A stretch of 64,000 bases of DNA from Candidatus Kapaibacterium sp. (GTDB taxonomy: Bacteria; Bacteroidota; Ignavibacteria; Kapaibacteriales; UBA2268). The stretch spans positions 2,016,001 through 2,080,000 of the forward strand of contig OY761611.1 of assembly GCA_963664875.1 (NCBI GenBank). The letters run 5' to 3'. Positions 40,357 to 63,936 of the stretch are shown here, piece by piece. Both the position numbers and the translations under genes were made by a program. Below the pieces are notes generated by a model. That model was not told the DNA's origin. It did not search any database and saw only the letters and a list, made by a program, of their open reading frames with translations. The stretch's first letter is position 1. Every line of letters begins with the position of its first letter.

Positions 40357-40517
40357 AAACAATACGAGCTAACAGACCACCTTGGCAATGTACAGCTTAC
40401 TTTTTCTCATTATAAATATAGAGAAAGCTATAGTCTGCCACGTTTGAAAGTTCTTTCAAAAAGTGATTACTATCCCTTTGGGATGTTAGTGCCGGATAAC
40501 TACTATCAGGATGGCAG
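40357..40517 (+). pseudogene. Rhs-core stub A1
   Basis: KQYELTDHLGNVQLTFSHYKYRESYSLPRLKVLSKSDYYPFGMLVPDNYYQDG; no start codon. Confidence 0.85.
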
Positions 40518-40524
40518 AAAAAAA

Positions 40525-40708
40525 ATTCCCCTCGTTGAGGGGTGGCACGCAGTGCCGGGGTGGAATCTCTCGATGCACAACTGTTTCAATGTAGGAAAAT
40601 GTAATTTATATAGATAAATTTTGCGATATTTTTTTCGGGGGAAGTGATTTATATTAGGTTTTATCCACCCCGCCCTCGCTTCGCTCACGCACCCCTCAAG
40701 AGGGGAAT
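40525..40708. mobile_element. REP-doublet (REPIN/MITE-like) element, intact copy
   Basis: Inverted arms ATTCCCCTCGTTGAGGGGTGGCAC...GGGGTGGA and TCCACCCCG...CACCCCTCAAGAGGGGAAT around an AT-rich spacer; second copy at 62454-62468 + 63661-63839. Confidence 0.8.
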
Positions 40709-40731
40709 GGAGCAGGTTTTGAGATGTTTTT

Positions 40732-41185
40732 CGCCAAATCGGTCACAAACAATACGAACTAACTGACCATTTAGGCAACGTGCGACTAACTTTTGAAGAT
40801 TATAAATATTTTACTGATACTCTGCCAAGACCACGCTTAAAAGTTCTTTCAAGAAATGATTATTATCCCTTTGGGATGTTAGTGCCGGATAACTATTATC
40901 AGGATGGCAGCACATTAGCTCGCTTCAAAGGTCTCTGAGCGATTCTATCCATACACTCAAGATAAAAAAGATGTAGATTGTATTACGGCATATTTTTCTT
41001 ATGTATTCAAACCTATTGAAGGGATAACAAGAGCTTCGGATGATGATAGATTAGGACCTTTGGATTCTCATTATATCGAAAATTATAAGTGAGTTTTCAA
41101 TATTAAACCAAATAAACCTGGATATATTGAACCTAATCAAAATAAAACTATTGACTCAGAAGCAGGAGAATCAGATGAACCATAA
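40732..41185 (+). pseudogene. Rhs-core stub B1 fused to a deleted toxin-tip remnant
   Basis: RQIGHKQYELTDHLGNVRLTFEDY...DYYPFGMLVPDNYYQDGSTLARF to 40926, then a shifted frame (KVSERFYPYTQDKKD...ENYK*VFNIKPNKPG...AGESDEP*) whose stop lies just inside the start of the next gene. Confidence 0.75.
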
Positions 41186-41762
41186 AATTAAAATTTTATT
41201 GATGTTTTTGTTCGTAATTATTATAGGTTTTATAATGTTTGGGAAAATCTTAAAGACCAAATATTATTTATATAATTATAAAAAAAGTAGTGATGCGATA
41301 TTTTATCAAAATGTACAAGATGTAGTTAGTGATTCAATTAGATCTTGGATAGAAAAAAACTATAGAGGTTTTGAAAAAGATGATAAAGTTATATATAAAT
41401 CTTCAAAATATTTATATTTTAACTCAAGTAAAGATAAATGTATTACATTTATATATGAATTTAACGCAAAGCCGGGGAATAGTAATATAATTAGGACAGT
41501 ATGTTTGTTTAAAAAAAACGAATACTGGAATGTTTTCACATACTCACTTCCTACATGGTATTATTTTGATGATGTGATACGTGGCTCTAATGTTACCTAT
41601 CAAATACAACAATATTACGACAAATATGAAGAAGAGTTTTTGGATAGAATGGTTCCAAAGTATTATAAATACTTCTTTTGTATAAACGATGGTATGTTTA
41701 ACTACGAAGAAAAACAGCTTCTTAAAAAACATAATAAACTCAAATATAGACATTTAAAATAA
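41175..41762 (+). CDS. Probable immunity protein (N-terminal TM)
   Basis: RBS AGGAG before ATG 41175; overlaps the end of the toxin-tail frame; low GC. Confidence 0.6.
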   Translation: MNHKIKILLMFLFVIIIGFIMFGKILKTKYYLYNYKKSSDAIFYQNVQDVVSDSIRSWIEKNYRGFEKDDKVIYKSSKYLYFNSSKDKCITFIYEFNAKPGNSNIIRTVCLFKKNEYWNVFTYSLPTWYYFDDVIRGSNVTYQIQQYYDKYEEEFLDRMVPKYYKYFFCINDGMFNYEEKQLLKKHNKLKYRHLK

Positions 41763-41836
41763 GTAACATTCTGATTATTTTTTGAAATTCATTCTTTCAA
41801 GTAGCCAAAGCAAAAGGCATAATGCGGCAAGCATTA

Positions 41837-41909
41837 CGCCAAATCGGTCACAAACAATACGAGCTTACTGACCACCTTGGCAATGTGCGTTTAACTTTTG
41901 CAGATTATA
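41837..41909 (+). pseudogene. Rhs-core stub C1
   Basis: RQIGHKQYELTDHLGNVRLTFADY. Confidence 0.85.
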
Positions 41910-41990
41910 GACATGGCTTTTTCCCCAAGACATTTGATACTGCGACAACATCATTTACCTCAATTCCATATTATTTTGTATGTTTGTTGT

Positions 41991-42578
41991 ATGGAACATC
42001 CTTCGCTATATATTATATCAGGTTGCAACGGTGCTGGCAAAACTACTGCTTCTATTACGGTGTTGCCGGAGGTACTACAATGCAATGAATTTGTCAATGC
42101 TGACGAGATTGCCAAAATTATCTCACCTATGGATCCTCATGAGGCTCGCATTGAAGCCGGGCGGATAATGATTGACAAAATCAGCCAAAATCTTAAAGCT
42201 ATGACTACTTTTGCTTTTGAGACGACTCTTGCAACCAAGTGCTTTTCTAATGTTATAAGAGAGGCGCACTCACTTGGCTACCTTGTATCTTTGCTATATT
42301 TCTGGTTAGACTCACCGGAGCTGGCTATTGCAAGAGTAAAACAGCGAGTTGCCTCTGGCGGACATGACATACCGAACGATGTTATAAAAAGAAGATATTA
42401 TGCAGGTATCAAAAATTTGTTTAAATTATATATGCCTATTTGTGATTATTGGATGGTGTTTGATAATTCTTCTTCACATTCTGAGCAGATATGTGAAGGG
42501 CATTTAGCAAACAGACCGTCGATATTTAACGAGAATTTATTTGTCAAACTACGCAGGCTTTGCGAGAATGAAATGTGA
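41991..42578 (+). CDS. Zeta-toxin-like P-loop ATPase (COG4185-like)
   Basis: GCNGAGKTT, FVNADEIA, FAFETTL, RVKQRVASGGHDIP; start reassigned to ATG 41991. Confidence 0.88.
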   Translation: MEHPSLYIISGCNGAGKTTASITVLPEVLQCNEFVNADEIAKIISPMDPHEARIEAGRIMIDKISQNLKAMTTFAFETTLATKCFSNVIREAHSLGYLVSLLYFWLDSPELAIARVKQRVASGGHDIPNDVIKRRYYAGIKNLFKLYMPICDYWMVFDNSSSHSEQICEGHLANRPSIFNENLFVKLRRLCENEM

Positions 42579-42738
42579 TTGTTGTGATTTTCAGGAATTG
42601 AAACGCAAAATACTAAACGGCTTGAAACTATCTCACAAAAAGTTAGTTGAAGAAAAAATTACAACTAATGATAAAATTATAGTTTCCGAAGAAGGCAAAG
42701 TAGTTCACAAAGACCCAAAAACAATCAAAACCTCATAA
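42568..42738 (+). CDS. Small partner protein of the zeta-like ATPase
   Basis: Overlaps the ATPase stop; KILNGLKLSHKKLVEEK...IIVSEEGKVV. Confidence 0.6.
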   Translation: MKCDCCDFQELKRKILNGLKLSHKKLVEEKITTNDKIIVSEEGKVVHKDPKTIKTS

Positions 42739-42795
42739 CGAGCTTTCTGTCGGCTCAGTTGTTATTTCGACCTGTGTATATCCAAGTTAAGTCAA

Positions 42796-43620
42796 TTAAA
42801 AAAGATCTTCTACTTTGATTTCGAACATAGTATTCCAATATTTGCCTGTGATGTAGAAGGTTTTTGTGGTTTCGTCAAAAGCCACTCCGTTAAATGCCTC
42901 TGCGTCAGGGTTGTCTTTAAGAGTTTTTCTTAGTTCGCTGCAATCTATAATACCCTTCATTTCGTGCGAATTCAAATCAATAACAGCGATTACGTCCGAA
43001 GTATAGATATTAGCAAAGAGCAAATCACCTACTCTCTCTATTTCATTTAGTGCATTAACCGGCGAACCAAGGTAGTAAACAGCAGAAGTGTTTTTTACAG
43101 AAAAATCAGCAGGATTAACATAGCGCAGGTAATTAGAGCCGTCAGTCATAATAAGCGAATTGTCTTTAGCAAGGGTCAATCCCCAGCCTTCTCCGGGATA
43201 GGAATATTCTCTTTTCAGATTAAAACTATGCAAATCGAACACAAAACACTTTCCTTCTGTCCAAGTCAGCATAAAGATTTCGTTATTGAGTAAAGATATA
43301 CCTTCGCCAAAGTATTTGGCGTCTAATTCTTTTTTTTGCAGAACTTTGCCTGTTTCTTTGTCAACCTTTCTTAGCGAAGATTCCCCACGCTGACCTGTGG
43401 ATTCATATAAAAAACCATCATGCACAAAAAGCCCTTGAGTGTAAGCCATAGGGTCATGATGGAAAGAGCGAATAATCTCAAACTCGTATCTTTTAAGTTC
43501 CTGAGTTACTTCTTTTTTAGAATTATTTTGTGCGGAGCTGCTGTTTGTCATTTTGGACTCTGTTTTATTGGCACAAGCTGCAAAACAAGCACATAAACAT
43601 AGAATAAGAATATATTTCAT
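42796..43620 (-). CDS. Glutaminyl-peptide cyclotransferase (type I), lipoprotein
   Basis: AYTQGL, LYESTG, YFGEGI, LTW, EGWGL, LNEIE, FNGVA, ITGKYW; lipobox FAAC. Confidence 0.93.
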   Translation of the reverse strand: MKYILILCLCACFAACANKTESKMTNSSSAQNNSKKEVTQELKRYEFEIIRSFHHDPMAYTQGLFVHDGFLYESTGQRGESSLRKVDKETGKVLQKKELDAKYFGEGISLLNNEIFMLTWTEGKCFVFDLHSFNLKREYSYPGEGWGLTLAKDNSLIMTDGSNYLRYVNPADFSVKNTSAVYYLGSPVNALNEIERVGDLLFANIYTSDVIAVIDLNSHEMKGIIDCSELRKTLKDNPDAEAFNGVAFDETTKTFYITGKYWNTMFEIKVEDLF

Positions 43621-43922
43621 GATAGCCGGAAGCCATTATTAAATAAAACAAATTTATATCAAATATTCCACAGATAAAAGATATTTTACAAGTATAGGCT
43701 GTAAAAGAATATCGAGTTTGCAAATTCACTTCAGATTATAGAAAGTAGTCAAACTTTTCAGATATTTGTTTAGTCAATTTCGGAAGTCAGAAATAATTTC
43801 TCCAAAAAATGAAATTTGCTAAATATTATTGTGATTATGCCGTTTCTTAAAATAGTTGCTTGATATTACTATAATTTTTACTATATTTATTACGATTTTT
43901 TAAAATATATGATATAAAGACT

Positions 43923-44957
43923 ATGGCTGTTATGTACAAGATACTTGTGGTAGAGGATGAGCTTACCAATGCGATACTTCTAAAAAGAATATTGTCAAAA
44001 GCCAATTATTCTGTGGTAGTAGCAAATAACGGACAAGAGGCGATAGATCATCTCGGTAGAGAAAAATTTGACGCAGTATTGACCGACTGGATGATGCCGA
44101 AAATGGACGGCATTGAGTTAATTCGCCAAATGCGCGAAAAGATGGAGCAACTGCCTTACATTATTATGATTACTGCTCTGGTGTCCGAAGGTGCCCGCAC
44201 CTATGCTTTAGAATCAGGAGCAGATGATTACATCGCTAAACCAATTGATGTGCAGGAATTACTAACAAGACTGGAAGATGGACTTGCAAAGAATATGCAG
44301 GCTGCTCCTAAGCAAGCAGATACAACTGTTACACTTGACACAGACACACTGCCTCCTTTTGTCGGGGTTGTGATTGGAACATCTACGGGTGGGCCTCCTA
44401 CTTTGATAGAGCTATTCAAACACGTAGAAGCTAATACTAATGCTGCCTTTTTTATAGTGCAGCATGGTCCTGCGTGGATGCTAGAAACATTTTCGCAAAG
44501 ACTGCAAAAAGAGACTTCATTGCAGGTAAGGCTTGCCACTCACAATCAGGAAGCAGAAAAAGGGCATATCTACATTGCACCCGGTGATAAGCACATGAGA
44601 ATTGAAGCAAATACATTTAGAATCAAACTTGATGACGGCCCTAAAGAAAACTTCGTTCGCCCTGCTGCTGATGCTTTATTTAGAAGTGCAGCAAGTGCTT
44701 TCGGAAAATACACTGTTGCCGTAGTACTAACAGGTCTTGGTAGGGACGCCGCACAGGGAGCATCTCAAATTTCTTCGGTCAAAGGCACCATAATAGTACA
44801 AGATCCAACTACAGCAGTGGCACCTTCGATGCCGAATACTGTTATCGAATCCGGTGTGCCTCACCGCTTAGTAACTTTGAACGAATTAGGTAAAGCAGTT
44901 TCTGAAGCAGTATTCCCAATATCTGCTTCACTAAAAAAAGCAAAAGCAGGAAAATAA
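43923..44957 (+). CDS. cheB: Response regulator-CheB methylesterase fusion
   Basis: REC (DWMMP, ADDYIAKP) plus GTSTGGP, VQHGP, RPAAD, LTGLGRD, SMP. Confidence 0.88.
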   Translation: MAVMYKILVVEDELTNAILLKRILSKANYSVVVANNGQEAIDHLGREKFDAVLTDWMMPKMDGIELIRQMREKMEQLPYIIMITALVSEGARTYALESGADDYIAKPIDVQELLTRLEDGLAKNMQAAPKQADTTVTLDTDTLPPFVGVVIGTSTGGPPTLIELFKHVEANTNAAFFIVQHGPAWMLETFSQRLQKETSLQVRLATHNQEAEKGHIYIAPGDKHMRIEANTFRIKLDDGPKENFVRPAADALFRSAASAFGKYTVAVVLTGLGRDAAQGASQISSVKGTIIVQDPTTAVAPSMPNTVIESGVPHRLVTLNELGKAVSEAVFPISASLKKAKAGK

Positions 44958-44985
44958 AGTTTTATTTACTTTGATTATTATTTAT

Positions 44986-45028
44986 AAAACCGAGCAGAAC
45001 AGATTGTAATTATGCTCGGTTTTTTTTT
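44986..45028 (+). terminator. Intrinsic terminator
   Basis: AAAACCGAGCA...TGCTCGGTTTTTTTTT. Confidence 0.7.
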
Positions 45029-45141
45029 CGTAATTCAGAACATTTAGCTTACAGTACAACAGCTTTTCTCAATCTCCATTCTTTTGGAAATGCCGAATAA
45101 ATAGTTATATTGCATATAATATTTAGATGTGACTAAATCAA

Positions 45142-46470
45142 GTGATTGATATGACTACTTTATTTTTAGAGATATGGAGACTTTTTCTTGAAATGTCTCC
45201 TTATATGCTTTTTGGATTGTTTTTTGTGGGCATACTGCACCTTTACTTTACTAAAGATTTTGTGCTTAAGCATGTTGGTGATAGCAGTATAAAGTCAGTT
45301 TTCAAAGCAGCACTCTTTGGCATACCACTGCCTCTATGTTCTTGTGGGGTAATTCCTACTGCTGTTTACATGAAAAAAAACGGTGCTTCGAGTGCTTCTA
45401 CAAGTTCCTTTTTGATTTCTACTCCTCAGACAGGTATAGACTCCATAGTAGCAACCTATGGAATGATGGGAGGAATTTTTGCAATTTTCAGACCTTTTGC
45501 AGCTCTGATTATGGGTATAGTTGGTGGCGGTATTGTCTCTTTGTTTGACAAACCTGTAATAAAAACAGAGCAAACACCCCGGCAGAACAAAAATATGTTT
45601 ACTATTATCGGACAGACAGCGACTACTCAAACCAATTCACAAGATACCTGCGAAGACGGCACATGTGACTGTAGTAGCGAAAGCGACAGTGTTCCGACTT
45701 CAAAATTTGCTAAATTTGGCAAGTACGCTTTTATAGATTTTTTAGATGATATTTCTGTCCAATTTATTATTGGGGTGATCATCTCGGGTCTCATCTCTTA
45801 TTTTATACCGGATAATTTTTTTGACAGCGAAACTCTCAACAGCGGCATTGTAGGAATGTTGCTAATGATACTTGTTGGCATTCCTATGTATATATGTGCT
45901 ACAGCATCTATACCAATTGCAGTCGCTTTAATGATGAAAGGTTTTTCTCCGGGTGTAGCTTTTGTTTTCCTTGCAGTCGGACCTGCAACTAATGCTGCAA
46001 GTTTGACTATATTACTGAATACACTCGGTAAAAAAATAGTCTCAGTATATCTTGCCACTCTTATTATTATGTCCATAATTATGGGATATTTGCTTGATTT
46101 TATATTTAGCTTCTCGGGAAGCTCTCCTGAAATGATAGCAATGCACCACACTCATGATTTGCTTAGCGATAACTGGAAGCTTATTTCAGGCATCGTTTTT
46201 GGCGTGCTTCTACTTCTTTCTGTTTATAGAAAATATATCGGTGTGCATCTCAGGAAAGAGAAACCGATTGCAGATTTGGAACTAACTGTTACCGGTATGT
46301 CCTGTAATCATTGCAAAAACAATGTAGAATCTGCACTTAAGCAGCTAAAAGGTGTAGAAAGTGTATCTGTAAATCTATCGAATCAAAAAGTTATAATCAA
46401 AGGCAATACAGACAGAGCTTTAGTTATTAAGACTATAGAGAAAGTCGGTTATAAAGTGATACAAAAATGA
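45142..46470 (+). CDS. SO_0444/ArsP-type metal permease with C-terminal HMA domain
   Basis: PLPLCSCGVIP, STPQTGIDS, PMYICATAS, GPATN; GMSCNHC. Confidence 0.9.
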   Translation: MIDMTTLFLEIWRLFLEMSPYMLFGLFFVGILHLYFTKDFVLKHVGDSSIKSVFKAALFGIPLPLCSCGVIPTAVYMKKNGASSASTSSFLISTPQTGIDSIVATYGMMGGIFAIFRPFAALIMGIVGGGIVSLFDKPVIKTEQTPRQNKNMFTIIGQTATTQTNSQDTCEDGTCDCSSESDSVPTSKFAKFGKYAFIDFLDDISVQFIIGVIISGLISYFIPDNFFDSETLNSGIVGMLLMILVGIPMYICATASIPIAVALMMKGFSPGVAFVFLAVGPATNAASLTILLNTLGKKIVSVYLATLIIMSIIMGYLLDFIFSFSGSSPEMIAMHHTHDLLSDNWKLISGIVFGVLLLLSVYRKYIGVHLRKEKPIADLELTVTGMSCNHCKNNVESALKQLKGVESVSVNLSNQKVIIKGNTDRALVIKTIEKVGYKVIQK

Positions 46471-46733
46471 CGCAAATTAAGTTTTCTTCTATAGGTTGTT
46501 TATCGAGCATCTTAAAGTATTTCAATATTAGTCTGCTTAAAGGCAATTAGGGATTGAGAGATAAATCCAATCATAAAACTTTTATTAAATCTATTGCAAA
46601 TTCTACTCGATTTTTGCAGTTCATAATACTTAACTGTTTTATTTGCAAATATATGCTTATCTTTATATAGTTTACACATAGTGAATGTTATGTTAACTTG
46701 AAAGATTGTTAAATTATATAATAGTGATTTGCC

Positions 46734-48242: not shown

Positions 48243-48280
48243 GCATATTCCCATAGCATAATTGGATTTGAATAATATAA

Positions 48281-49159
48281 TTACTCTTCACTGCTATTAA
48301 AAATATAACGACTGAGCTCGGCTGAAAGCAATAATATCAGTGAGGAGTAATAAATCCATAATGCAAACGACACAATGATTGCATAAGTTCCGTAAAATCT
48401 ACCATAATTACTAACGCTGCTGATGTACCATGCAAAAATATTTCTACCCAATTCGATACTGACAACACTGATTCCGGTAGCAAGCAGTCTGACTTTGCGG
48501 GGAAGTTTCCTATTCGGGACTGACCTTAGGATAAAATAGAAAAGCATAGCAGTAGATAGAAGCGGTACGAATATTTTTAACAAGTCAGAAAGTGCTAAGT
48601 CTATATACACAGAAAGATTATTAATATTGGTTTCAAGTATTTCGATTGCAATAAGAACAATCGGCACAACATAAGAATAAACCAAGATCAGCACAGTCAA
48701 TATTACAGTCAAAAGTATATCCTTCACTCTGTAGAAAAAATAAACTCTTGGCGAAGGAATTTCAAAAACAGCATTCAAGCCTGTCCTGAGAGAACTTATT
48801 AAAGTAGAAGAAATCCACAGCAAAGCTGCAAACCCTATGTACCCAAATACGGAACTGTATTCGATGATATTATTGACTTCAATTATTACTTCATGCAGGA
48901 TAGTTTCTGTTGAGGCTGTAGGAGGCAATAGCTCCTTGAGTAGAGCTGTAAGAGTTGTCTGAAAGTTTGCCGGTTCCACAAATAGGTTAACTATATACAA
49001 AACAACAAGAAAAAGCGGTATCAGATAAAGCAAAATATTAAATGCAATCCCACCTGCAATCATAAATAAGTGATGCGACTCCACTCTATCGACAAAAGTA
49101 TCAATATACTTATAAATTTTGCTGGTTTTCGGATGCCGCTCTAAAAATTTATCTATCAT
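48281..49159 (-). CDS. YihY/BrkB family membrane protein
   Basis: AGGIAF..LL.LIP, YGRFYGTYAIIVSFALWIYYSS.ILL. Confidence 0.9.
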   Translation of the reverse strand: MIDKFLERHPKTSKIYKYIDTFVDRVESHHLFMIAGGIAFNILLYLIPLFLVVLYIVNLFVEPANFQTTLTALLKELLPPTASTETILHEVIIEVNNIIEYSSVFGYIGFAALLWISSTLISSLRTGLNAVFEIPSPRVYFFYRVKDILLTVILTVLILVYSYVVPIVLIAIEILETNINNLSVYIDLALSDLLKIFVPLLSTAMLFYFILRSVPNRKLPRKVRLLATGISVVSIELGRNIFAWYISSVSNYGRFYGTYAIIVSFALWIYYSSLILLLSAELSRYIFNSSEE

Positions 49160-49251
49160 TATCTTTTTTGCTTACTGAAACTTACGCTTTGTTTTGGTAT
49201 ATTTGAAAAATACGCAATTTGAATAAGAAATAATATACAATTTTTACCAAA

Positions 49252-50931: not shown

Positions 50932-50938
50932 AAATCAA

Positions 50939-51532: not shown

Positions 51533-51567
51533 CTATCCCGAATCACAAATCTACAAAATTGCAATAT

Positions 51568-52288: not shown

Positions 52289-52489
52289 AATTTACTCCGG
52301 TTTTTAGTTATTAGGACTAAAACAAATTTACGGCTTTATTAGCTTTTTCCCTAATCCTTTTGGCATTTTTTATATATCAGAAAAAAGGGACTTGGATAGA
52401 TTGAAGAGCAAGATTAGACTCCGCATAAAATAAAGACAATATTTCGTGTATGTTATTTTAGAGAGTGAATCTGATAGGCATTTGGATAT

Positions 52490-53435
52490 AATAAACCCAA
52501 ATCCCTAATACAAACTTGCGTTTGTGGCAAAAAGTAGCTAACTGTTTGTCTATTTTTATCTTTATAAATATCATTTAGTCGGAAAAATATATATAATATC
52601 ATAGTAAATAGTCCGTGTATTGCCTATATATATTGCATCAGCACTCCATAATATAGAAATTTGTTTTCAGTAATTCCTTAATTAGATGTGCATCTTACGC
52701 TTAAACACTAGATGAGGAGAGGAGACAAAGCGTTTTTTTTTCTTTTTCTTTGGTTTCCGTTTCTTTTTCTTTTTTATCGCAAAAAAAAGAAAAAGAAATG
52801 GAAAAAGTAACACCAATCTCTTATTTATATCACCTGTAAAGGAAAGTCTTGCCGCCCTTACAGGGCTCTGTTTACTCAATACTTACAACCGTCCCATGGC
52901 GCTGCCATGGGCTATTATCTATCAGCCTTTCAGGCTGAAAATATATTCTTATTAACCAACATTATTCACCTGCAACGTTTAACTAATAAACTCAATATGG
53001 TTTAAAATAATAAAAATTTTTCTTCATATCGTTGTCTTTCATTCTAATAACTACTTACTTGCAATTAGTTAGATGGAAAATGTCATTAGAAAAAAAACAA
53101 TTGTAGATTCTATACATAAGTGTCTGCTACATTTGAACACCCCGTCACGTCTTCGACGTGCCACCCCTCTTTGAAAAGAGGGGAATTTTGATTCCCCTTC
53201 TTGGGAAGCGTCGTGCTGAGCTTAAGTTTACACTGAGCAGCGCCGAAGTGAAGTAAAGGGGTGCCCGAAGGGCGGGGCGATGCACTGAGCTTGCCGAAGT
53301 GTAGTTGACGCTTTATGATTATAAACTTACTTAAAAATGGTAAGCCAATCTTACTCATTTGACAACCTTTTTAATGTCATAACTCAATATAAAATAAGAC
53401 TATAGATTGAGTTTGATTTTTTCTAATGACAAATC
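52490..53435. mobile_element. Non-coding repeated element, copy 2 (conserved 52490-53083, variable segment 53081-53431 with 15-bp TIRs)
   Basis: About 96% identical to 25983-26575; TGTCATTAGAAAAAA...TTTTTTCTAATGACA. Confidence 0.75.
53137..53304. repeat. Nested REP-like palindrome cluster
   Basis: CACCCCG...GCCACCCCTCTTTGAAAAGAGGGGAATT arm (same family as 40525), interrupted by CTGAGC...CGAAGTG units (same family as 60129-60175). Confidence 0.65.
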
Positions 53436-53500
53436 AGGGATAAAAAAACCCGAGCATTTCAACCCGGGCTTCATTAAGTCATGCTATGCATATCCAAGTA

Positions 53501-55568: not shown

Positions 55569-55794
55569 CTTATTAGATTATTTGAATAATTCCAAAATTC
55601 TCCAATACAAACATAAGAAGTGATTTGCTAATAAACCAATTTAATTTTATACTAAACTATTGCGATTCAACGACTTAACACAATCTTAACATTTATTGTC
55701 ATTACAAAGCCTGTATTATTGCATTTAAAGGCTATTGTTAAGAGCTGCTCCCTCAAGAAACGGGAAAAATAAATTTTGTGTAAATTCTCAAAGC

Positions 55795-55829
55795 AAAAAA
55801 AAAGCTGCTCAATTTTGGTAGAGCAGCTT
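55795..55829 (-). terminator. Intrinsic terminator
   Basis: AAAAAAAAAGCTGCTC...GAGCAGCTT. Confidence 0.75.
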
Positions 55830-55863
55830 GATCTAAGTTCACTTAGTAAAAGGATTGATATTA

Positions 55864-57882
55864 CTATTTTGCAATAGAAATTTTAAGCATTGTAGTCGCT
55901 TCTGCTGAATCGATACGCAATAGATACATACCATTAGTCAAATCAGGTGCGACAAATTCCATTTTGTTTATGCCTGCTGCAAGAGATACTGTTCCCAAAT
56001 CAGCAATTTTTACGCCTACAAGATCGTATAAGCTAACTTTTGCAGTGGTTGCTACCTCAGAGTTGATTTCTAAAGTTGCTTCGTTTACCATAGGGTTAGG
56101 ATATACTTTTGATTCGCCAAAATTCAAATTATCATTTACAGATGTATCATCATCAAACCAGAAAGTAAAGAAGCCGTCAGGAGCAGTGATAGGATATACA
56201 GTTTCTTTGCCGTTTTTTGTTTTACTTGCAAAGTAGTATTCTATCGTATCTTGATCGCTTGCGGCTGAGAAGTCAACAGCTGTTAAGAAGGTATTGCCGG
56301 TTGGAGCAAGTTCAACTTTCTGCCAATCATTTCCGCTGTTTTTAACTCTAAAGAAAAGATTTGCAACCTCTATGCCACTGTGATTCTCTATTTCAACTTC
56401 AAATTTATATATATTTTTCTCTTTTTGAGCTCCTCTGTAGCTTTTATGTTTATAAAGCACAGGGTTTTCAGCAGGAATTTGCATTGTGATGCAGTGGATA
56501 GCACCACCCATCGGAGCCAAATATCTTGCGTCTATCGGCACTATGTTGTAGCCCGGTAGAATCTCTTTGTATCTTGCGATGGCTTCTTCAGTGTCTTTAG
56601 AGTAGCCGTCTTGGTCGTTTGAAAATGCAGGGAATATAAATGTTTTATTTACAAAGAGACCATTAACAAAACCACGCGCCTGTAAATATTCATTTCCGGA
56701 TTTTGACAAATCAGATACATAAGTACCTTGGTCAGTGTGAGGTAAGAATATTCTATCAACATAGTACGGCGTGCCGTTTGTTGTAGTATAGCCGGCGATA
56801 AGATCCAAATTATTTTGTACGGTTTTGTAGTCTGTACTATTAGACATTACTTCAGGATATTCTGTCGCAATCATAGATTCATGATCATATTGCTTCAAAT
56901 AAATATCAATGTGCCCTGTGCCACCATCATATTGCAAGTGTTGCAAAACAATATTGTTTTTCAAGCCAAGAATTTTTGCCATTTCTTCGTCAACTTTTGC
57001 TTTATTCATTGGCTCTTTGTATTCGTAGAACTGACCAACTTGATCAGCATTATTTGAATACAATACGTTTGAATAAATACCATTTCCAAAACCATCAGTC
57101 ATGAAGTTACCACCTTCGATTTCAACAGGAGAATCATAACGAGGGTAGCCTTTCAATGTAGCCATCAATTCCGGAATTTCGTCATCTAACGGTCTGCCCG
57201 GGTAATATTTGAAATCCGCAAATGCCAAATCATTATTTTGACCATAATAGAATCCCCATGGACCGTAGTCTCTCATCCAAAAACCATTAACGCTATTTTC
57301 TGCAAGGATAAAACGGTGATTGGTTAGTGGCGTGCCAAGAGAAGCCATGTATTGCTTCAAGTAAACGGTATCGCCTGCAGCAAGTTCAGGTATAACTATC
57401 CAAACCTGTGCTTGCTGTTGTATAGCATTAGCAAGTTGCGACCAGATTACCGGTTGCTCGCTATATTGCGGGAACAAGTCCAAAATTTCAAATGCTATAT
57501 CTCTTTCTTCCCATTGTCCTGTCTGTTGGTTAGGATAATCGCCCTTGCCACCATAATAAGGATAAATTTGGTTTGTATCTTTGTCGAAAGAGTAAGAAGG
57601 CCATTGGATCATTACTGCCTGCACTTCTTCGAATTCACCGGGAGTGCGGATGCCTTCAGGCAAAGCGTTTAGTTTGGAGTCTGTTGGTTTTGAGATATAT
57701 TTTGCAGATCTGTGTTCGTTGGGAACTACAAAGTTTTTACTGCGTACATGCTGGTAAGAGTTTTCCCCTTTATCCTGCTGTATTTGTTTTACTTTTTCTG
57801 CGAATGCTGACCTATCCATCGATATCAAATTAGAAGACATCGCTGCTGTTAGTAAGCATGCTAAAGCGATTAGACGTTTCAT
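55864..57882 (-). CDS. Secreted peptidylarginine/agmatine deiminase family protein with T9SS C-terminal domain
   Basis: PGEFE, WMRDYGP, EGGN, TGHID, GGAIHCITMQIP; CTD KVYPNP...LYDLVG...GMYLLRI...KISIAK; start reassigned to 57882. Confidence 0.9.
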   Translation of the reverse strand: MKRLIALACLLTAAMSSNLISMDRSAFAEKVKQIQQDKGENSYQHVRSKNFVVPNEHRSAKYISKPTDSKLNALPEGIRTPGEFEEVQAVMIQWPSYSFDKDTNQIYPYYGGKGDYPNQQTGQWEERDIAFEILDLFPQYSEQPVIWSQLANAIQQQAQVWIVIPELAAGDTVYLKQYMASLGTPLTNHRFILAENSVNGFWMRDYGPWGFYYGQNNDLAFADFKYYPGRPLDDEIPELMATLKGYPRYDSPVEIEGGNFMTDGFGNGIYSNVLYSNNADQVGQFYEYKEPMNKAKVDEEMAKILGLKNNIVLQHLQYDGGTGHIDIYLKQYDHESMIATEYPEVMSNSTDYKTVQNNLDLIAGYTTTNGTPYYVDRIFLPHTDQGTYVSDLSKSGNEYLQARGFVNGLFVNKTFIFPAFSNDQDGYSKDTEEAIARYKEILPGYNIVPIDARYLAPMGGAIHCITMQIPAENPVLYKHKSYRGAQKEKNIYKFEVEIENHSGIEVANLFFRVKNSGNDWQKVELAPTGNTFLTAVDFSAASDQDTIEYYFASKTKNGKETVYPITAPDGFFTFWFDDDTSVNDNLNFGESKVYPNPMVNEATLEINSEVATTAKVSLYDLVGVKIADLGTVSLAAGINKMEFVAPDLTNGMYLLRIDSAEATTMLKISIAK

Positions 57883-58193
57883 GGCTACTGACCACCTTTG
57901 TTGTATTATTGAATATAAAAACATGTTTTTTATCTTTTGCAAATCTCCGTTATGTATATACAAAATCGGAGACTAAAAGTTACAAGCCTATACAGATTTA
58001 TTTTAGCTTTTTAATTACAACTCTGAAAAGCCAAAAGGACTGTGCAAAAATACAACCCTTTCTTATTATAGCATCAAAAAATAAATTAGATACTGTATAA
58101 GTTTTGATAGTTTTGTATTTTGGTATATTGTTTAGACTGCAAAAAATCAGATAAGTTTAAAATAGATATAGTAATTATTTAAGTGAGGATAAT

Positions 58194-59981
58194 ATGTCCT
58201 GGAAAAAAAGAACCGTTACCTGCGGCGCTTTGAGAGAAGCTGACGAAGGAAAAAAAGTTATTCTTAACGGTTGGGTTGCTTCGCGCCGCGATCTTGGCGG
58301 TCTGTATTTTATCGACATGAGAGACAGATACGGCATCACTCAAGTTGTTATAGAGCCGGAGTTTACTCCTGAGCTTTCTGAAAAAGCTAAAGAAATCAAA
58401 TCTGAATTCGTTTTGTGGGTAGAAGGTACTGTAAGAAAACGCTCTAACCCGAATGCAAATATCCCTACAGGTCTTGTAGAACTTGTTGTTACGGATTATG
58501 GTGTAATCAATCAGTCTAAACTTCCACCATTTGAAATTTCGGACAGTGTGGACATCAGCGAAGAAATCAAATTGAAATACAGATACTTAGATCTTCGCAG
58601 ACCTAAAATGCAGAAATACCTTATTACTCGTAATAAATTATCTCAAATCATGCACAGATATTTCGAGAAAAACGACTTTGTCGAAATCGAAACTCCTGTG
58701 CTTATGAAATCTACTCCTGAAGGCGCACGCGACTTCCTTGTGCCAAGTAGAATCAACAAAGGTAAATTCTACGCTTTGCCGCAAAGCCCTCAGATCTATA
58801 AGCAAATCCTTATGATGTCAGGCTATGACAGATATGTGCAAATTGTAAAATGCTTCAGAGATGAAGATTTGCGTGCTGACCGTCAGCCTGAATTTACTCA
58901 GATAGATATCGAGATGTCATTTATCGACCAAAATGATATAATGGCTCTTATCGAAGGCTTTATAAATGAAGTATGGAAAGAGATTTTAGGAATGGATATT
59001 CCTGAAACTTTCCCTCGCATGACTTACCACGAAGCTATGACAAGATTTGGCTCTGATAAGCCGGACTTGCGCTTTGATATGGAAATCATTACTTTGAATG
59101 AGATAGTTAAAAATGCTGAATTTGCTGTATTTTCTGATACTTTGGCAAATGGTGGCGTTGTTGCAGCTATTAATGCTAAAGGATGTGCTGCTTACTCTCG
59201 CAAGCAAATAGACAACCTTACAGACTATGCTAAAAAGTATGGTGCAAAAGGTCTTGCATGGATGAAATTTGAAAACGGCGAAGTAAAATCACCTATCGCA
59301 AAATTCCTAAAAGAAGAAGAAATCACTGCTATCAAAGAAGCAATGAAAGCTGAAGAGGGTGATTTAATTCTTATTTCTTCAGACGCATGGACTCGCTGCT
59401 ACACTATCCAAGGTGCTTTGCGTCTTGAAGTAGCACGCCAGTCAGGAATCATGGATTCCGTTAAAGGCAAGTATGCATTCAGCTGGGTAGTTGACTTCCC
59501 TCTTTTGGAGCATGACGAAGAATCTAACAGATATATCGCTATGCACCACCCATTCACTCAACCTAAAGAAGAGCATCTTGATCTAATGGAAACAGCTCCT
59601 GAAAAAGTAAACGCAGTTGCTTATGACTTAGTAATCAATGGTGCTGAAGTAGGCGGTGGTTCTTTAAGGATTCATGACTCAAACGTACAGGCAAAAATGT
59701 TCAAATTACTTGGTATGACAGACGAAGACGCAAGAGAAAAATTCGGCTTCCTGCTTGATGCTTTACAGTACGGCGCACCTCCACACGGCGGTGTAGCTCT
59801 CGGTATGGACAGATTAGTGATGACACTTACAGGCACTGAAAACATCAGAGACGTAATCGCTTTTCCTAAAACCACAAGCGGCCTTTCACTAATGGACGGC
59901 GCTCCTTCTTTCGTAGATGAAGCCCAGCTCACAGAGCTTGCTTTGAATCTAATCAAAAAAGAAGTAGAAGAGAAAGAATAA
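58194..59981 (+). CDS. aspS: Aspartate--tRNA ligase
   Basis: RRDLGG, STPEGARDF, ALPQSPQ, CFRDEDLRADRQPEFTQID, PPHGGVALGMDR. Confidence 0.98.
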   Translation: MSWKKRTVTCGALREADEGKKVILNGWVASRRDLGGLYFIDMRDRYGITQVVIEPEFTPELSEKAKEIKSEFVLWVEGTVRKRSNPNANIPTGLVELVVTDYGVINQSKLPPFEISDSVDISEEIKLKYRYLDLRRPKMQKYLITRNKLSQIMHRYFEKNDFVEIETPVLMKSTPEGARDFLVPSRINKGKFYALPQSPQIYKQILMMSGYDRYVQIVKCFRDEDLRADRQPEFTQIDIEMSFIDQNDIMALIEGFINEVWKEILGMDIPETFPRMTYHEAMTRFGSDKPDLRFDMEIITLNEIVKNAEFAVFSDTLANGGVVAAINAKGCAAYSRKQIDNLTDYAKKYGAKGLAWMKFENGEVKSPIAKFLKEEEITAIKEAMKAEEGDLILISSDAWTRCYTIQGALRLEVARQSGIMDSVKGKYAFSWVVDFPLLEHDEESNRYIAMHHPFTQPKEEHLDLMETAPEKVNAVAYDLVINGAEVGGGSLRIHDSNVQAKMFKLLGMTDEDAREKFGFLLDALQYGAPPHGGVALGMDRLVMTLTGTENIRDVIAFPKTTSGLSLMDGAPSFVDEAQLTELALNLIKKEVEEKE

Positions 59982-60171
59982 TATTTAATCTATATAGTGC
60001 AGGGGAGCTCGCTCCCTTGTGCTGTATTATTTATAGTAAATCAGACTCCTTTCTACACAAAATAGTCAGTGTGCATTTTGAAGTGTTCGTACATTTCAGC
60101 TAGTATTTGTTTGCAGTCCATACTGTTGCACTTCGATAGTTTGCTCGGCATAAACTAAGCTCAGCACATCG

Positions 60172-60314
60172 CTCAACGAGGTGAATTTTCTTTTAAGCGT
60201 GGCAGACTATAGTTTTCTCTATATTTATAATCTGCAAAAGTTAGTCCCGGTTACTGAGCCTGTCGAAGTACCAAGGTAGTCAGTTAGTTCGTATTGTTTG
60301 TGACCGATTTGGCG
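60172..60314 (-). pseudogene. Rhs-core stub C2 interrupted by a REP and followed by the start of a REP-doublet arm
   Basis: Minus strand CGCCAAATCGGTCACAAACAATACGAACTAACTGACTACCTT[GGTACTTCGACAGGCTCAGTAACC]GGGACTAACTTTTGCAG...CCACGCTTAAAAGAAAATTCACCTCGTTGAG. Confidence 0.82.
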
Positions 60315-60396
60315 AAAAAAAATATTTAGTCAGCTAAGCTAAGTATAATAAATGGACTTGTATTCTTTATTATACTGTTTAGAACAGCAAAGAAAC

Positions 60397-61200
60397 TTAG
60401 ATATAATCATCATTATTCTTTACTGGAATCAAATCATCCCATTTAACTTGTTTGTCTTCAAGTAAGATATTTTTAAGTTCATTGTTGAAATAGATCTTAT
60501 TATATGCAAGCCAACCTTTTCCATATATCTCTGCTGATCTTACTATTGGAAGAGTGACTTTTTCTTTAAATGGCGGAATAAAATCATCTATAATTGGATT
60601 AAATTTCTTTGTCCCACAAACTTCACATGTTTTTTCTAAATATTTCTCAATGTCAATTGGGAATTTTAATCTGGGAATTTCAAGCTGTACTATCTCTTCA
60701 AAAGGAATATCCTTTTTATGATTAATAACTTCTCTGTTACCTATACCAAGTGGTTCTAATCTTTTTGTGTAATATTCTTTCTCAACAAAAATTGCATCAT
60801 ATTCCCAAGTTGTCGTAAAAAACTTATTTTTTTTCAGCGAAGGTATTTTTGATAATCTAAAGGGATTGATTTGGTATTTCAGAGCTTTACAACTTGGACA
60901 TAGTTTATTATCATAAACTATTGTTTTATAAATAATATTATTATCAGGCATAGGAAACCCATACTCTCTAAAACCGCCATATTCTACATATCGAGCCTCT
61001 AATACTTCTGGTTTTGTAAATTGTGCAATAATTCTGATTCGTGATTTTTCTCCTGTCATTAAAATATCTTCGTGTTCTTTAAAAAACATCAAAGGAACTT
61101 TTATGAAAGAATTATTTTTAAATTTAATACCATGAGACTGAATGAATATAATTTTTTTTTCTATTTCATGACGAGTATATACTATAACTACTTTTTCCAT
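60397..61200 (-). CDS. Probable immunity protein with two CxxC motifs
   Basis: ATG 1 nt after the toxin stop; CPSCK and CEVCG. Confidence 0.7.
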   Translation of the reverse strand: MEKVVIVYTRHEIEKKIIFIQSHGIKFKNNSFIKVPLMFFKEHEDILMTGEKSRIRIIAQFTKPEVLEARYVEYGGFREYGFPMPDNNIIYKTIVYDNKLCPSCKALKYQINPFRLSKIPSLKKNKFFTTTWEYDAIFVEKEYYTKRLEPLGIGNREVINHKKDIPFEEIVQLEIPRLKFPIDIEKYLEKTCEVCGTKKFNPIIDDFIPPFKEKVTLPIVRSAEIYGKGWLAYNKIYFNNELKNILLEDKQVKWDDLIPVKNNDDYI

Positions 61201-61201
61201 T

Positions 61202-62275
61202 TTACTTTCCAATTTTATCAAGATATTCTAATAATATATTTTTTACTTCTGGCAATTCTTTATGAATTTCTTCTACGGCCTCCCTAAGATCTTCTGCAGA
61301 GAAATTTTTAGTATGCGGTAGATCTTTTGCATTCTTTCTACCTATCCAATTTACCCATACTTTGTTAAATTCCTTGTGTTCATCCCCAGTTAAAACAATG
61401 CAAGGTATATCATCTGCAGAAACTTCAAGAAATTCAGCAAATCTTTTTTCAATTAAATGATGTACTTCCAAACCTTTTATACCACTTTTATCAGCCGCCT
61501 CTCTAAGAACTTTATAAGTCCCTATCCCAAAATCATCAGCATATCGAAAAACTTTCAATCCTGTGCCAGCACCTTCTCTAATAATTAGTCTAGCAGTTTG
61601 TCGTACTGTACCTTTTACACAAGTTAATGGAAGAGCTGCTAATTGAACATTTCCTGATATTTCTGATATATCTGTAGCAATTTCTCTTTGAGCTGGTGGA
61701 AGATAAGAATATTCTGTTATTTCTCCTAAGAGTCCCCAAGTTGCAAACTCACTAAACGTAACACTGATGGAAGCATAAAAACCGTTTACGAAAGAAAGTC
61801 TTCTTTCAAATTCAGCCATTTTTTCATCATATACTCTTTTCTTTTCGGCTTGTTCTGCTTCATATTCAGCTCTTTCTTCATCTGTTCGATGAGCTTCTAC
61901 AACTGCTTTTCCTTTAGTGACACTCCACTTCTTCCCCCCTATATTTACAAATTTACTCCCTTCATGATCAATTTCATCTCCTGTTTCATAATCGGCAGGG
62001 TTATAAGTATCCGCAGGGTTGGTTTCCGCAACTAACCCCAAGGGATCCATAAAAAATATTGGATTATTATTAAATGTCGAATAAGCAGACTGATTAGAGA
62101 AAAAAGCACCCATTGGATCCAAATTCCACCTCCTCGCAGTCCGCGAGTCATACATCCAAAACATTGCATGATAGCTATTCCCCAATCCCGCTATCTCATC
62201 ATCACGCTCCATGCCATTGAATCCGAAGCGAGCTAATGTGCTGCCATCCTGATAGTAGTTATCCGGCACTAACAT
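61202..62275 (-). CDS. Orphan Rhs core-tip + C-terminal toxin (HNH/AHH-like nuclease), N-terminally truncated
   Basis: RFGFNGMERDDEI, MYDSRTARRWNLDP, NNPIFFMDPLGL; toxin motif LEVHHLIEKRF...IVLTGDEHKEF. Confidence 0.85.
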   Translation of the reverse strand: MLVPDNYYQDGSTLARFGFNGMERDDEIAGLGNSYHAMFWMYDSRTARRWNLDPMGAFFSNQSAYSTFNNNPIFFMDPLGLVAETNPADTYNPADYETGDEIDHEGSKFVNIGGKKWSVTKGKAVVEAHRTDEERAEYEAEQAEKKRVYDEKMAEFERRLSFVNGFYASISVTFSEFATWGLLGEITEYSYLPPAQREIATDISEISGNVQLAALPLTCVKGTVRQTARLIIREGAGTGLKVFRYADDFGIGTYKVLREAADKSGIKGLEVHHLIEKRFAEFLEVSADDIPCIVLTGDEHKEFNKVWVNWIGRKNAKDLPHTKNFSAEDLREAVEEIHKELPEVKNILLEYLDKIGK

Positions 62276-62430
62276 CCCAAAGGGACGCGTCCCAAGGGAT
62301 AGTAATCATTTTTTGAAAGAACTTTTAAGCGTGGCAGACTATAGTTTTCTCTATATTTATAATCTGCAAAAGTTAGACGCACATTGCCAAGGTGGTCAGT
62401 TAGCTCGTATTGTTTGTGACCTATTTGGCG
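62276..62430 (-). pseudogene. Rhs-core stub B2, upstream part, out of frame with the toxin because of a 14-bp insertion
   Basis: RQIGHKQYELTDHLGNVRLTFADYKYRENYSLPRLKVLSKNDYYP; extra CGCGTCCCAAGGGA at 62286-62299 relative to stubs A1/B1. Confidence 0.82.
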
Positions 62431-62468
62431 AAAAACATCTCAAAACCTGCTCCATTCCCCTCAAGAGG

Positions 62469-63660
62469 CAGGGATGATTTGTTCTTTGTAAATATCATAT
62501 AATATAGTAAATTATAGAAAGCCAAACACAAACTTTTCTAATCTGGGGGGATTTATGGAAAAGCAAACGTTAGTAAATTATCTTGATAAGTTGACAGATA
62601 AGCGTCGCAGGGAAGGCACACGCCATAATCAATCATTTGTATTATTGCTGGTTTTGATGGCGACTATGAGCGGACAATATGGCTATCGTGGCATAGAAAG
62701 ATTTATAAAGAAGAATGCCGAAGACATACTGAAATATTTAAAGCCTCATAAAGATAGATTACCAACTTACGCAACAATTTTTAGAGTGGTAAATAATATA
62801 GATTTTGATGAATTTGCACAGATTTTTAAAGAGTGGTCAAAAGTTTATGCAAAGCCTCAAAGCGGTGAAATAATCAGTATAGATGGCAAAGCTTTGAAAG
62901 GCACATTAGTAGAATACAATTCGAAATACCAGAACTTTATAAGCATTGTTTCTGCACATTCTCAATCAAGTAAAATGTCACTAAGTATAAGCAAATATGA
63001 GAATAAAAAATCAAGCGAGATAAGCGTAGTTGAAGAAATGATTAGAGATTTAGAACTGACTGGCGTAGTCTTTACAATGGATGCTTTACACTGTCAAAAA
63101 AACTCTAAGAACAATTGTTAGTACTAACAACAACTATATTATTTGCGTAAAAAAGAATCAAGGTCGTTTGTACAAAGAACTGGAGAGTTTGAGTTCGAGC
63201 TGGTCAACAAAGATCGATTATTATAAAACCGAAGAAACTAATAGAGACAGACGAGAAACTCGTAAAGTATATGTATATTCATTAAACGATAAAATTAAGA
63301 ACGAGTGGTCCGGATCACAGCAATTAGTAAAGGTACAAAGGATTAGAAAAACAAAACAAATGCAGGAAGTTCATGTACATTATTATTTGAGCAGTCAAGA
63401 AAAACCAGCAAAGTATTATATGCAGAGCATACGAGGACATTGGGGCATTGAAAACCAGCTACATTGGGTAAAGGATGTGGTAATGAAAGAAGATGCTTGG
63501 AAAGTGAGAAATACACAAGCAGCTTCAGTCATGAGTATAATAAAGTCAATTTGTATCAATATTTTTAGGTCAAAGAAGCGTATTGATTGTACCAACTTTT
63601 TCTATGAGACTGCCGACAATGTAGAACTATTGGTGACTTTGTTAGAATGAATCAACCCTG
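62469..63660 (+). mobile_element. ISAs1-family insertion sequence (1192 bp)
   Basis: TIRs CAGGGATGATTTGTTC / GAATGAATCAACCCTG; 10-bp flanks CCTCAAGAGG and CCTCTTGAGG; splits a REP-doublet copy. Confidence 0.92.
62555..63650 (+). CDS. ISAs1 transposase split into two ORFs (62555-63121, 63081-63650) at an A7 run
   Basis: LTDKRR, SIDGKALKG, KSSEI, TMDALHCQK | VKKNQ, IRGHWGIENQLHWVKDVVMKED. Confidence 0.9.
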
Positions 63661-63839
63661 CCTCTTGAGGGGTGCGTGAGCGAAGCGAGGGCGGGGTGGA
63701 TAAAACCTAATATAAATCACTTCCCCCGAAAAAAATATCGCTAAATTTATCTATGTAAATTACATTTTCCTATATTGAAACAGTTGTGCTTCGAGAGATT
63801 CCACCCCGGCACTACGTGCCACCCCTCAACGAGGGGAAT
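63661..63839. mobile_element. REP-doublet element, copy 2 (remainder at 62454-62468), inverted relative to 40525-40708
   Basis: Reverse complement aligns to 40525-40700 with a few substitutions. Confidence 0.82.
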
Positions 63840-63843
63840 TTTC

Positions 63844-63936
63844 TTTTATGCGTGGCAGACTATAGTTTTCTCTATATTTATAATCTGCAAAAGTTAGACG
63901 CACATTGCCAAGGTGGTCAGTAAGCTCGTATTGCTT
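63844..63936 (-). pseudogene. Rhs-core stub A2
   Basis: KQYELTDHLGNVRLTFADYKYRENYSLPR, joined directly to the REP-doublet arm. Confidence 0.85.

Follow-up and report, generated by a model that had tools for sequence, protein, structure and literature searches.

Two inverted loci in a Kapaibacterium-like genome are probable orphan rhs toxin/immunity arrays

Two loci in a 64,000-nt stretch of DNA from Candidatus Kapaibacterium sp. (contig OY761611.1, positions 2,016,001 to 2,080,000; hereafter the window) each hold three short copies of the end of an Rhs core set around toxin or immunity cargo, and they raise the question of how such fragments came to lie in one order, in opposite orientation, among housekeeping genes. 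The original prediction for this DNA had seen in them a portable framework of core fragments and a repeat element, possibly dispersed by a transposase acting in trans. We consider it likely that each locus is an array of orphan (displaced) rhs C-terminal toxin/immunity cassettes from a Kapaibacterium-like bacterium; loci of this kind are known. This assignment draws on the anatomy of the loci, their homologies, the family of an inserted element, parallels in relatives and a predicted toxin-immunity contact. A repeat scan of the 38-64 kb part of the window recovered all six core-end copies that had been predicted, which we call stubs A1, B1 and C1 (locus 1) and A2, B2 and C2 (locus 2), and confirmed the same order of elements at both loci (Table 1). 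On either side of the 42.8-60.1 kb segment, the loci are inverted repeats of each other over ~0.4-0.6 kb, and the window ends 64 nt upstream of A2. With a 32-nt stub probe, we obtained 4 matches at up to 3 mismatches, as compared to 0.00 expected.

By tblastn, the window matched only positions 2340-2468 of a 2,705-aa Rhs protein (RHS_repeat) encoded at locus L003 of a related Kapaibacterium. No core homology beyond these positions was found in the 64 kb, in agreement with the claim that no parent rhs lies in view. The tip of locus 2 matched TIGR03696 at positions 14-76 (E = 4.7e-06) with 27 bits, below the curated cut-off of 32.5 because the fragment is truncated. A PxxxxDPxGL-type boundary was present as DPLGL at 62047-62033, and the core 3' fragment is followed by a variable C-terminal domain, as in orphan rhs-CT genes. 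The homology to the L003 protein, the TIGR03696 match and the DPLGL boundary together support the reading of the loci as Rhs-tip/immunity cassettes bounded by core-end stubs. At least two further orphan-sized tips were found on what appears to be the contig of the window, one of them starting at the same MLVPDNYY and the other at (V)RLTFADYKY. The 57 open reading frames (ORFs) of the window that we scanned (15 + 38 + 4) were housekeeping or unassigned, for example GatB, IMPDH, AspS, transaldolase, flagellin and CheB. Among them there was no REP-associated tyrosine transposase (RAYT; REP, repetitive extragenic palindromic) or Y1 transposase, no tyrosine recombinase (Phage_integrase, XerD) and no Rhs shell. 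Rfam at gathering thresholds and ARAGORN gave 0 matches and 0 tRNAs, respectively, in the window.

The cargoes of the two loci were unrelated, as had been claimed. The last ~110 residues of the intact tip at locus 2 form a domain that we found in 339 library proteins at E ≤ 0.001, and in 47 at 1e-10. It was C-terminal in all of the 150 best hits listed, and 10 of the 16 hits scanned for other domains carried DUF6443 and/or RHS_repeat with the toxin domain at their C-terminus. It was not found among proteins of 626-2000 aa, a range below the 2,705 aa of the L003 Rhs. The domain contains an HH..E..H motif, in which H48, E51 and H75 were invariant and H47 nearly so in 36 aligned sequences (numbering of the 132-residue aligned segment). 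Its AlphaFold2 (AF2) model had a predicted local distance difference test score (pLDDT) of 85.7. With Foldseek, no structure in the PDB matched the toxin domain at E ≤ 0.001; the highest-ranking ones were weak (E ~1, probability ≤0.18) and included Cas8-HNH and Cas9 HNH domains, and the predicted label "HNH-like" may serve as a lead. Immunity gene 2 (imm2) starts 1 nt past the tip stop codon, directly downstream as in rhs-CT/immunity pairs, and three other contigs encode homologues that are 72-79% identical to its product. The predicted complex of the toxin domain with the imm2 product scored 0.80 (0.82, 0.80 and 0.74 in separate runs) as compared to 0.01 for the best control. Among solved complexes 116 of 157 score this high, as do 2 of 215 mismatched pairs; these calibration counts are rough owing to the use of own alignments. 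At least 69% of the contacts agreed between runs, the partner pLDDT was at least 89, and the predicted interface lies at toxin residues 52-63, beside the HH..E motif. The C-terminal domain of the locus-2 tip is predicted from these models to bind the downstream immunity protein. Locus 2 contains a working-looking toxin/immunity pair, while locus 1 seems to keep an immunity candidate (imm1) only. Neither Pfam nor NCBIfam assigned a family to gene X, an ORF directly upstream of A1, or to the toxin domain, imm1 or imm2. The Zeta_toxin/AAA_33-like gene downstream of C1 is followed by an overlapping 65-aa ORF (41991-42738 together), and the two may represent either a toxin-antitoxin pair of their own or additional cargo.

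Table 1. Positions of the array components and neighbouring features in the window
Feature	Position	Strand	Description
Gene X	39630..40298	+	Signal-peptide or lipoprotein-like ORF directly upstream of A1
Stub A1	40357..40517	+	Rhs core-end fragment KQYELTDHLGNVQLTF...YYQDG; 3' end cut by REP-like element
REP-like doublet (MITE-like), locus 1	40518..40708	+	Two inverted GC-rich arms, AT-rich centre
Linker GGAGCAGGTTTTGAGATGTTTTT, locus 1	40709..40731	+	23 nt
Stub B1	40732..40926	+	Core-end fragment RQIGHKQYELTDHLGNVRLTF...STLARF
Insert remnant AAAGGTCTCTGAGCGA	40927..40942	+	First 16 nt of the 34-nt insertion; homology stops there
Presumed 3' remnant of deleted tip	40943..41093	+	Inferred from position only; no homologue in the loci
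Candidate immunity gene 1 (imm1)	41175..41762	+	195 aa, hydrophobic N-terminus, 23.8% GC; assigned by position
Stub C1	41837..41914	+	Short terminal stub, end at ...LTFADYR
Zeta_toxin/AAA_33-like P-loop gene	41991..42578	+	After C1; PF06414, E = 1.2e-07
Lone REP-like arm	53138..53189	-	nhmmer E = 2.8e-06; in a 1.2-kb non-coding stretch, no stub beside
Decayed left end of REP-like element	60155..60189	-	Adjoins C2
Stub C2	60190..60314	-	Cut at PRLK as in A2; GC-rich insert 60269-60244 in place of HLGNVR
Immunity gene 2 (imm2)	60397..61200	-	267 aa from ATG 61200; two CxxC motifs
Intact tip ORF	61202..62275	-	357 aa: Rhs core end with DPLGL, spacer, C-terminal ~110-aa toxin domain
Stub B2	62225..62430	-	14-nt frame-breaking insertion; palindrome at 62282-62293
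Linker, locus 2	62431..62453	-	Identical to locus-1 copy
ISAs1-family insertion sequence	62469..63660	+	1,192 bp; inside the doublet's terminal hairpin CCCCTCAAGAGGGG
REP-like doublet, locus 2, main part	63661..63842	-	Last 15 nt at 62468-62454, past the insertion sequence
Stub A2	63843..63936	-	Cut at PRIK by REP-like element

The boundaries of the stubs recurred in part. The motif CGCCAAAT opens B1, C1, B2 and C2, which bears out the claim that four stubs are homologous from one motif, and in full-length rhs genes it is internal to the core (...KYKSLRQIGHK...). The common breakpoint of A2 and C2 into a REP-like arm was likewise seen, at ...TAAAAG|AAAATTC, and A1 breaks 77 nt further on (...GATGGCAG|AAAAAAAATTCCCC). 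We tallied the 5' starts of 19 stub fragments from the window and from related loci L001-L006 and L042, using approximate tblastn starts, and found 12 of the 19 within Rhs positions 2338-2350, the remaining starts being at 2081, 2290, 2294, 2367, 2368, 2376 and 2415. Short terminal stubs end at about Rhs positions 2363-2379. At distant loci, Flavobacteriales included, the orphan frames reach 131-914 codons upstream. The recurrent stub boundary is real, yet not universal. Over the common 63 nt, identity was 96.8% for A2/B2 as compared to 84.1% for A1/A2 and 88.9% for B1/B2. The stubs do not pair by position between the loci, A2/B2 being the closest of these three pairs, and the pattern is that of a gene-conversion-like mosaic. 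The common 5' start ascribed to A1 and A2 is better described in another way: the A1 5' junction was colinear with a site at L002 where gene X meets an orphan stub that opens at CCAAAT, and A1 is therefore probably a decayed copy of that L002-type boundary and not a separate AAACAATACGAG boundary.

Relatives provided parallels for this layout. Our genome scan yielded 485 confirmed stretches, from which 68 loci were kept, all of them chosen for holding a stub. The best stub matches were in Chlorobiota and Kapaibacterium assemblies (64-76% aa identity over the 66-aa stub), and the housekeeping genes of L005 and L006 were 77-91% identical to those of the window. At L003, the layout of stub, tip, immunity gene and stub lies directly downstream of the rhs gene for the 2,705-aa protein, in the order rhs (2978-11095), immunity gene (11101-11658), stub (11906), tip (12072-13172), immunity gene (13200-13916) and short stub (14096). 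L002 is an orphan-only island adjoining cytochrome and permease genes, in which three tip fragments lie amid insertion sequence (IS)-type genes with integrase-core (rve), HTH_Tnp_1, HTH_38, Mu-transposase and IstB_IS21 domains in Pfam; no full rhs was found within +-10 kb of it. A solitary 70-nt stub lies between ordinary genes at L042, and many more distant loci are tandem arrays with 2-6 stub copies. No relative of imm1, imm2, the transposase or the zeta-like gene was found in the 68 loci.

Several of these parallels point to shared descent. Gene X was 54% identical in aa over 209 residues to a reading frame at L002 13690-14289 that also lies directly upstream of an orphan stub, and blastn gave one 748-nt match (69%) in which gene X through A1 was colinear with L002 13768-14481. 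Because the X-A1 junction is conserved, a 34-nt insert (described below) is common to several orphans and A2 and C2 have a common junction, the reproducible breakpoints carry the signs of shared descent, and they would fit common descent with stub-to-stub homologous recombination. Orphan stubs occur elsewhere in the same neighbourhood of relatives, at L005 2 kb from the transaldolase/LFT orthologues and at L006 between the CheB and BrkB orthologues; the arrays of the window flank this transaldolase/LFT/CheB/BrkB gene set in inverted orientation. Different orphan places in one neighbourhood of three relatives are as expected of rearrangement-prone repeats. We rejected DNA conservation of the core-end fragments across phyla as a sign of a recombination site, the differences being mostly at synonymous third positions; such differences fit protein-level constraint.

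The element that the original prediction had built into its framework is a 186-bp REP-like doublet, which was 97.2% identical between the loci (174/179; 40518-40703 and 63661-63846). Its arms (60-65% GC; at 40522-40566 and 40662-40709 in locus 1 by nhmmer) flank a 95-nt spacer of 29.5% GC and end in CCCCTC..GAGGGG hairpins. The outer end of an arm reads ATTCCCCTC(N)TTGAGGGGTG and the inner end CGGGGTGGA, while the hairpin in the middle varies. A 23-nt arm probe had 2 matches (0.00 expected). As a single strand, the doublet folds with -34.9 kcal/mol (z = -3.89) and its arms pair, so that it consists of two inverted hairpin-forming REP sequences as a REPIN (REP doublet forming hairpins) does. 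No direct repeat flanks either copy. When we searched the 68 loci and the window (1.1 Mb) with an arm profile by nhmmer, 15 hit rows were obtained in the window, L034, L038, L045 and L048. The window had five hits, namely two doublets and the lone arm at 53138-53189; together with the decayed end beside C2, it contains 5 REP-like arms and 1 remnant. Outside it, we found five single arms in L038 upstream of an rhs gene, one in L034 and one doublet in L045, which overlaps L048 so that their doublet is one site. There was no hit in the seven closest related loci (L001-L006, L042), despite the 13 stub fragments there. Given the lone arm at 53.1 kb and the lack of arms in these seven loci, we assign the 186-bp element to a family of GC-rich, REP-like repeats that is dispersed and is not a conserved part of the orphan framework. 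The stretch with the lone arm, between the cobW-like and transaldolase genes (52290-53500), also contains CTTCGGCAAGCTCAGTG-type repeats, long purine runs and small GC-rich repeats, and L005 has an orphan Rhs stub and tip on the matching side of the transaldolase gene. In L038 (400-3500), each of the five single arms is followed by a T run, and the arms lie in tandem-like repeats of ~250-320 nt that precede a long rhs-like ORF (3759-9530).

At locus 2, a 1,192-bp IS parts the doublet from the linker. The predicted order of doublet, linker and stub B common to both loci thus holds, but their contiguity does not. The transposase gene of this IS consists of two overlapping ORFs, 62555-63121 and 63081-63650, with the break close to an A7 run at 63096. 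The two ORFs matched positions 1-151 and 148-314 of NF033564 (314 positions; E = 1.7e-35 and 3.6e-41) as well as PF13808 (DDE_Tnp_1_assoc) and PF01609 (DDE_Tnp_1). By direct reading, the ends are CAGGG...CCCTG and the first 11 nt, CAGGG(A/T)TGATT, agree at 10/11, and the DDE transposase between terminal inverted repeats places the element in the ISAs1 family, with which the E. coli H-rpt is linked. H-rpt and Rhs elements are mentioned together in two papers. ISAs1 elements make target duplications of 8-10 bp. The 10-nt flanks of this copy, CCTCAAGAGG and CCTCTTGAGG, are mutual reverse complements and not direct repeats; one reading is a 10-bp target duplication that may have been made palindromic later by template switching. 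We rejected the idea that the doublet is a deletion derivative, or miniature inverted-repeat transposable element (MITE), of the ISAs1 element, since the IS ends in CAGGG(A/T)TGATT and the doublet in ATTCCCCTC(G)TTGAGGGGTG.

Smaller inserts break the stubs themselves. A 14-nt insertion in B2 contains the palindrome GGGACGCGTCCC; because of it the stub frame stops and is not continuous with that of the tip, whose ORF begins at an internal ATG (...FGM...). A 13-nt core of the C2 insert is found again between genes at 16565-16577 (2 matches as compared to 0.01 expected). A hairpin-forming and frame-breaking 34-nt insert (AAGGTCACTGAGCGA...GTCGAAGTG) occurs at ARF^GFNG, in place of GG-TTC, at the same site of orphans L001_2122, L005_139, L002_6566 and L003_orph (L001 2223-2256, L005 315-348, L002 6571-6604 and L003 12104-12137). 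These four lie on 4 contigs of three other genome assemblies and their tips differ. The insert contains AAAGGAG, with AGGAG 15 nt ahead of an in-frame ATG. The tip deletion that had been predicted at locus 1 is presumed from position, and its start required correction, as it would begin 16 nt into this same insertion. Small GC-rich palindromic or repeat inserts were seen to break orphan stubs at several positions, including L045 ~12030-12050.

An orphan-array origin would work as follows. A cassette consists of a short Rhs core-end fragment, a variable toxin tip and an immunity gene, and the next core-end fragment closes it. These fragments (~80-200 bp, encoding RQIGHKQYELTDHLGNVR...) would serve as homology handles, between which RecA-type recombination may duplicate, delete, convert and swap cassettes and might in addition transfer one to a full-length rhs elsewhere. 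Unequal or reciprocal exchange between stubs would keep the inherited 5' boundary and change the sequence upstream of it. Because orphan DNA is dispensable, the arrays may have gathered mobile DNA, namely the REP-like doublet, the ISAs1 element inside it and the small palindromic inserts, and the tips that originally followed A1, A2 and C2 were probably lost through deletions beginning at the doublet's left end. The present role of the arrays may be that of a reservoir of immunity genes and silent toxins. Several points weigh against this account. With no parent rhs visible in the window, the link of its arrays to a full-length rhs is inferred from relatives, and for homologous recombination to be efficient one would expect longer stubs. 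Between the loci, identity is 97-100% for the doublet and linker and 81-89% for the stubs at their sides, a gap that plain segmental duplication does not predict; gene conversion of the stubs by other genomic copies may explain it. In the distant Kapabacteria locus L045, a doublet of the same family stands right at the 5' edge of an orphan module, in place of the initial part of the stub, and this hints at a non-random association. Also, independent displacement would cluster more loosely than 12 of 19 starts at 2338-2350. It is improbable, in our view, that the core-end handle with its recurrent 5' and terminal-stub 3' boundaries is a dedicated cassette junction at which the doublet and/or the 34-nt insert mark active ectopic seeding without a parent gene.

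A framework of stub, REP-like doublet, linker and stub, spread together with cassettes by a REP-associated tyrosine (HUH) transposase in trans, could account for the fact that both full doublets and the one remnant in the window abut stubs and that identity between the loci is higher for the doublet and linker than for the neighbouring stubs. The L045 doublet, the further orphan tips apparently on the same contig and the REP fashion of the arms (GC-rich hairpins with conserved ends and a variable middle) would also suit it. We consider this mechanism very improbable, however, and the original prediction of it found no support in the window and the loci compared. The only transposase among the ORFs scanned is the split ISAs1 DDE gene, whose ends are unlike those of the element. 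The doublet is absent from the seven closest loci, one arm stands at 53.1 kb with no stub, and C1, C2, L002, L003 and L042 have the same stub boundary without a doublet. No target-site duplication was visible and the two left junctions of the doublet differ. The adjacency of doublet and stub is also biased by ascertainment, given how the loci were chosen, and dispensable orphan DNA is a permissive landing place for a doublet as well. The breakpoints that had been taken as signs of a framework are better regarded as marks of shared descent, and L003 has the layout beside a full rhs.

A different history, which is compatible with orphan arrays, is that a single ancestral array was split and remodelled by transposase action, with an inversion or duplicative event giving the inverted copies 20 kb apart, with adjacent deletions made by the doublet or the IS taking the tips after A1, A2 and C2, and with the segment in between now able to invert. 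The left junctions are exact at the doublet end, yet at two different stub positions, and the L045 element looks like an insertion with an adjacent deletion. The inverted repeats around the segment and the stubs at other positions of the same neighbourhood in relatives also agree with this history. We regard it as possible but doubtful, as no transposase is known for the doublet, no relative with the uninverted order was seen among the loci compared, and stubs on both sides of both doublets are not given by simple replicative inversion. Self-expression of the orphan modules as toxin-antitoxin-like pairs, with the frame-breaking inserts allowing an internal start (ATG 62275 in B2, or the NGM codon after the AAAGGAG-containing insert), appears unlikely. 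It would agree with the overlap of the tip ATG with the stub-frame stop (GGATGTTAG), with imm2 opening so close behind the tip, with the retention of the 34-nt insert and its AGGAG in 4 orphans with unlike cargo, and with the report of Salmonella orphan Rhs toxins as toxin-antitoxin modules (PMC7043789). However, in DNA of 37% GC a stop codon is soon encountered after any frameshift, a spacing of 15 nt is long for a Shine-Dalgarno start, and B1 has lost its tip.

If the window holds orphan rhs arrays, they have close counterparts. Jackson 2009 reportedly dealt with orphan rhs and displacement arrays. The orphan rhs-CT/rhsI or "C-terminal displacement" arrays of Dickeya, Salmonella and E. coli, as described in PMC3150448 and PMC3967940, are like the window in having a core-end fragment with DPxGL, a variable tip and a linked immunity gene, as well as in their downstream core fragments, IS elements and recombination via the shared core. 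The window differs from them in having no full-length rhs in 64 kb, two inverted arrays 20 kb apart among housekeeping genes, a Kapaibacterium-like host of the Bacteroidota-Chlorobiota group and handles of 80-200 bp, as compared to the 522 bp over which main and orphan rhs recombine in Salmonella (PMC3967940). The cdiA-CT/cdiI orphan arrays of contact-dependent growth inhibition (CDI) systems are similar in their motif-to-motif homology, in lacking their own translation starts and in being often broken by IS elements; their cassettes are homologous exactly from one VENN to the next, and cassette exchange has been described (PMC3150448). In these, however, the delivery protein is CdiA and not Rhs and the boundary motif is another. 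REPIN/RAYT systems share with the doublet the inverted GC-rich hairpin arms and a dispersed family with conserved arm ends (PMC3337134, PMC3116915), and REP tags GTAG or CGTC are named in PMC3733652; the doublet of the window differs in its 95-nt AT-rich centre and in having no RAYT among the ORFs scanned. The rAID-1 arrays of Bacteroidales resemble the window in being orphan immunity arrays with repetitive intergenic sequences (bioRxiv 10.1101/471110). They are defined by an XerD-family tyrosine recombinase, however, which was not found among the ORFs scanned, and the repeated unit of the window is a piece of a toxin gene core. Among the literature matches listed for rhs orphans together with REPINs, RAYTs or MITEs, only an E. 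coli mobilome preprint has both "rhs" and "REPIN", and it reports no rhs circles.

Orphan toxin/immunity arrays are regarded as stores of silent toxins and immunity genes, which bacteria can reload onto delivery proteins. The window would extend this picture to a little-studied Kapaibacterium-like lineage, in which the arrays seem to stand apart from any parent gene. It is also a clean example of how short homology handles can pass for "reproducible breakpoints". The toxin domain at the C-terminus of the locus-2 tip is widespread and uncharacterised, and an immunity partner is predicted for it. GC-rich inserts that break stubs and a doublet at orphan edges in two genomes are further features, neither being yet a new mechanism.

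Some minor observations were also made. A hairpin with a 10-bp stem (ATATGTGCAG...CTGCACATAT) lies at 63942-63973, directly upstream of A2 at the window edge. Far from both loci, 111 nt of the window (16683-16793) were 95.5% identical to L002 10558-10668, just before a transposase gene (HTH_38, rve), and are probably a solo IS end; this segment had no tRNA or Rfam family match. At L040 (3500-14000) of a Chitinophagales assembly, we found six orphan stubs, five of which are preceded by the same ~60-nt leader. This leader contains TACATTTG, which we take to fit the Bacteroidota -7 promoter motif TAnnTTTG, and these cassettes may each have their own promoter.

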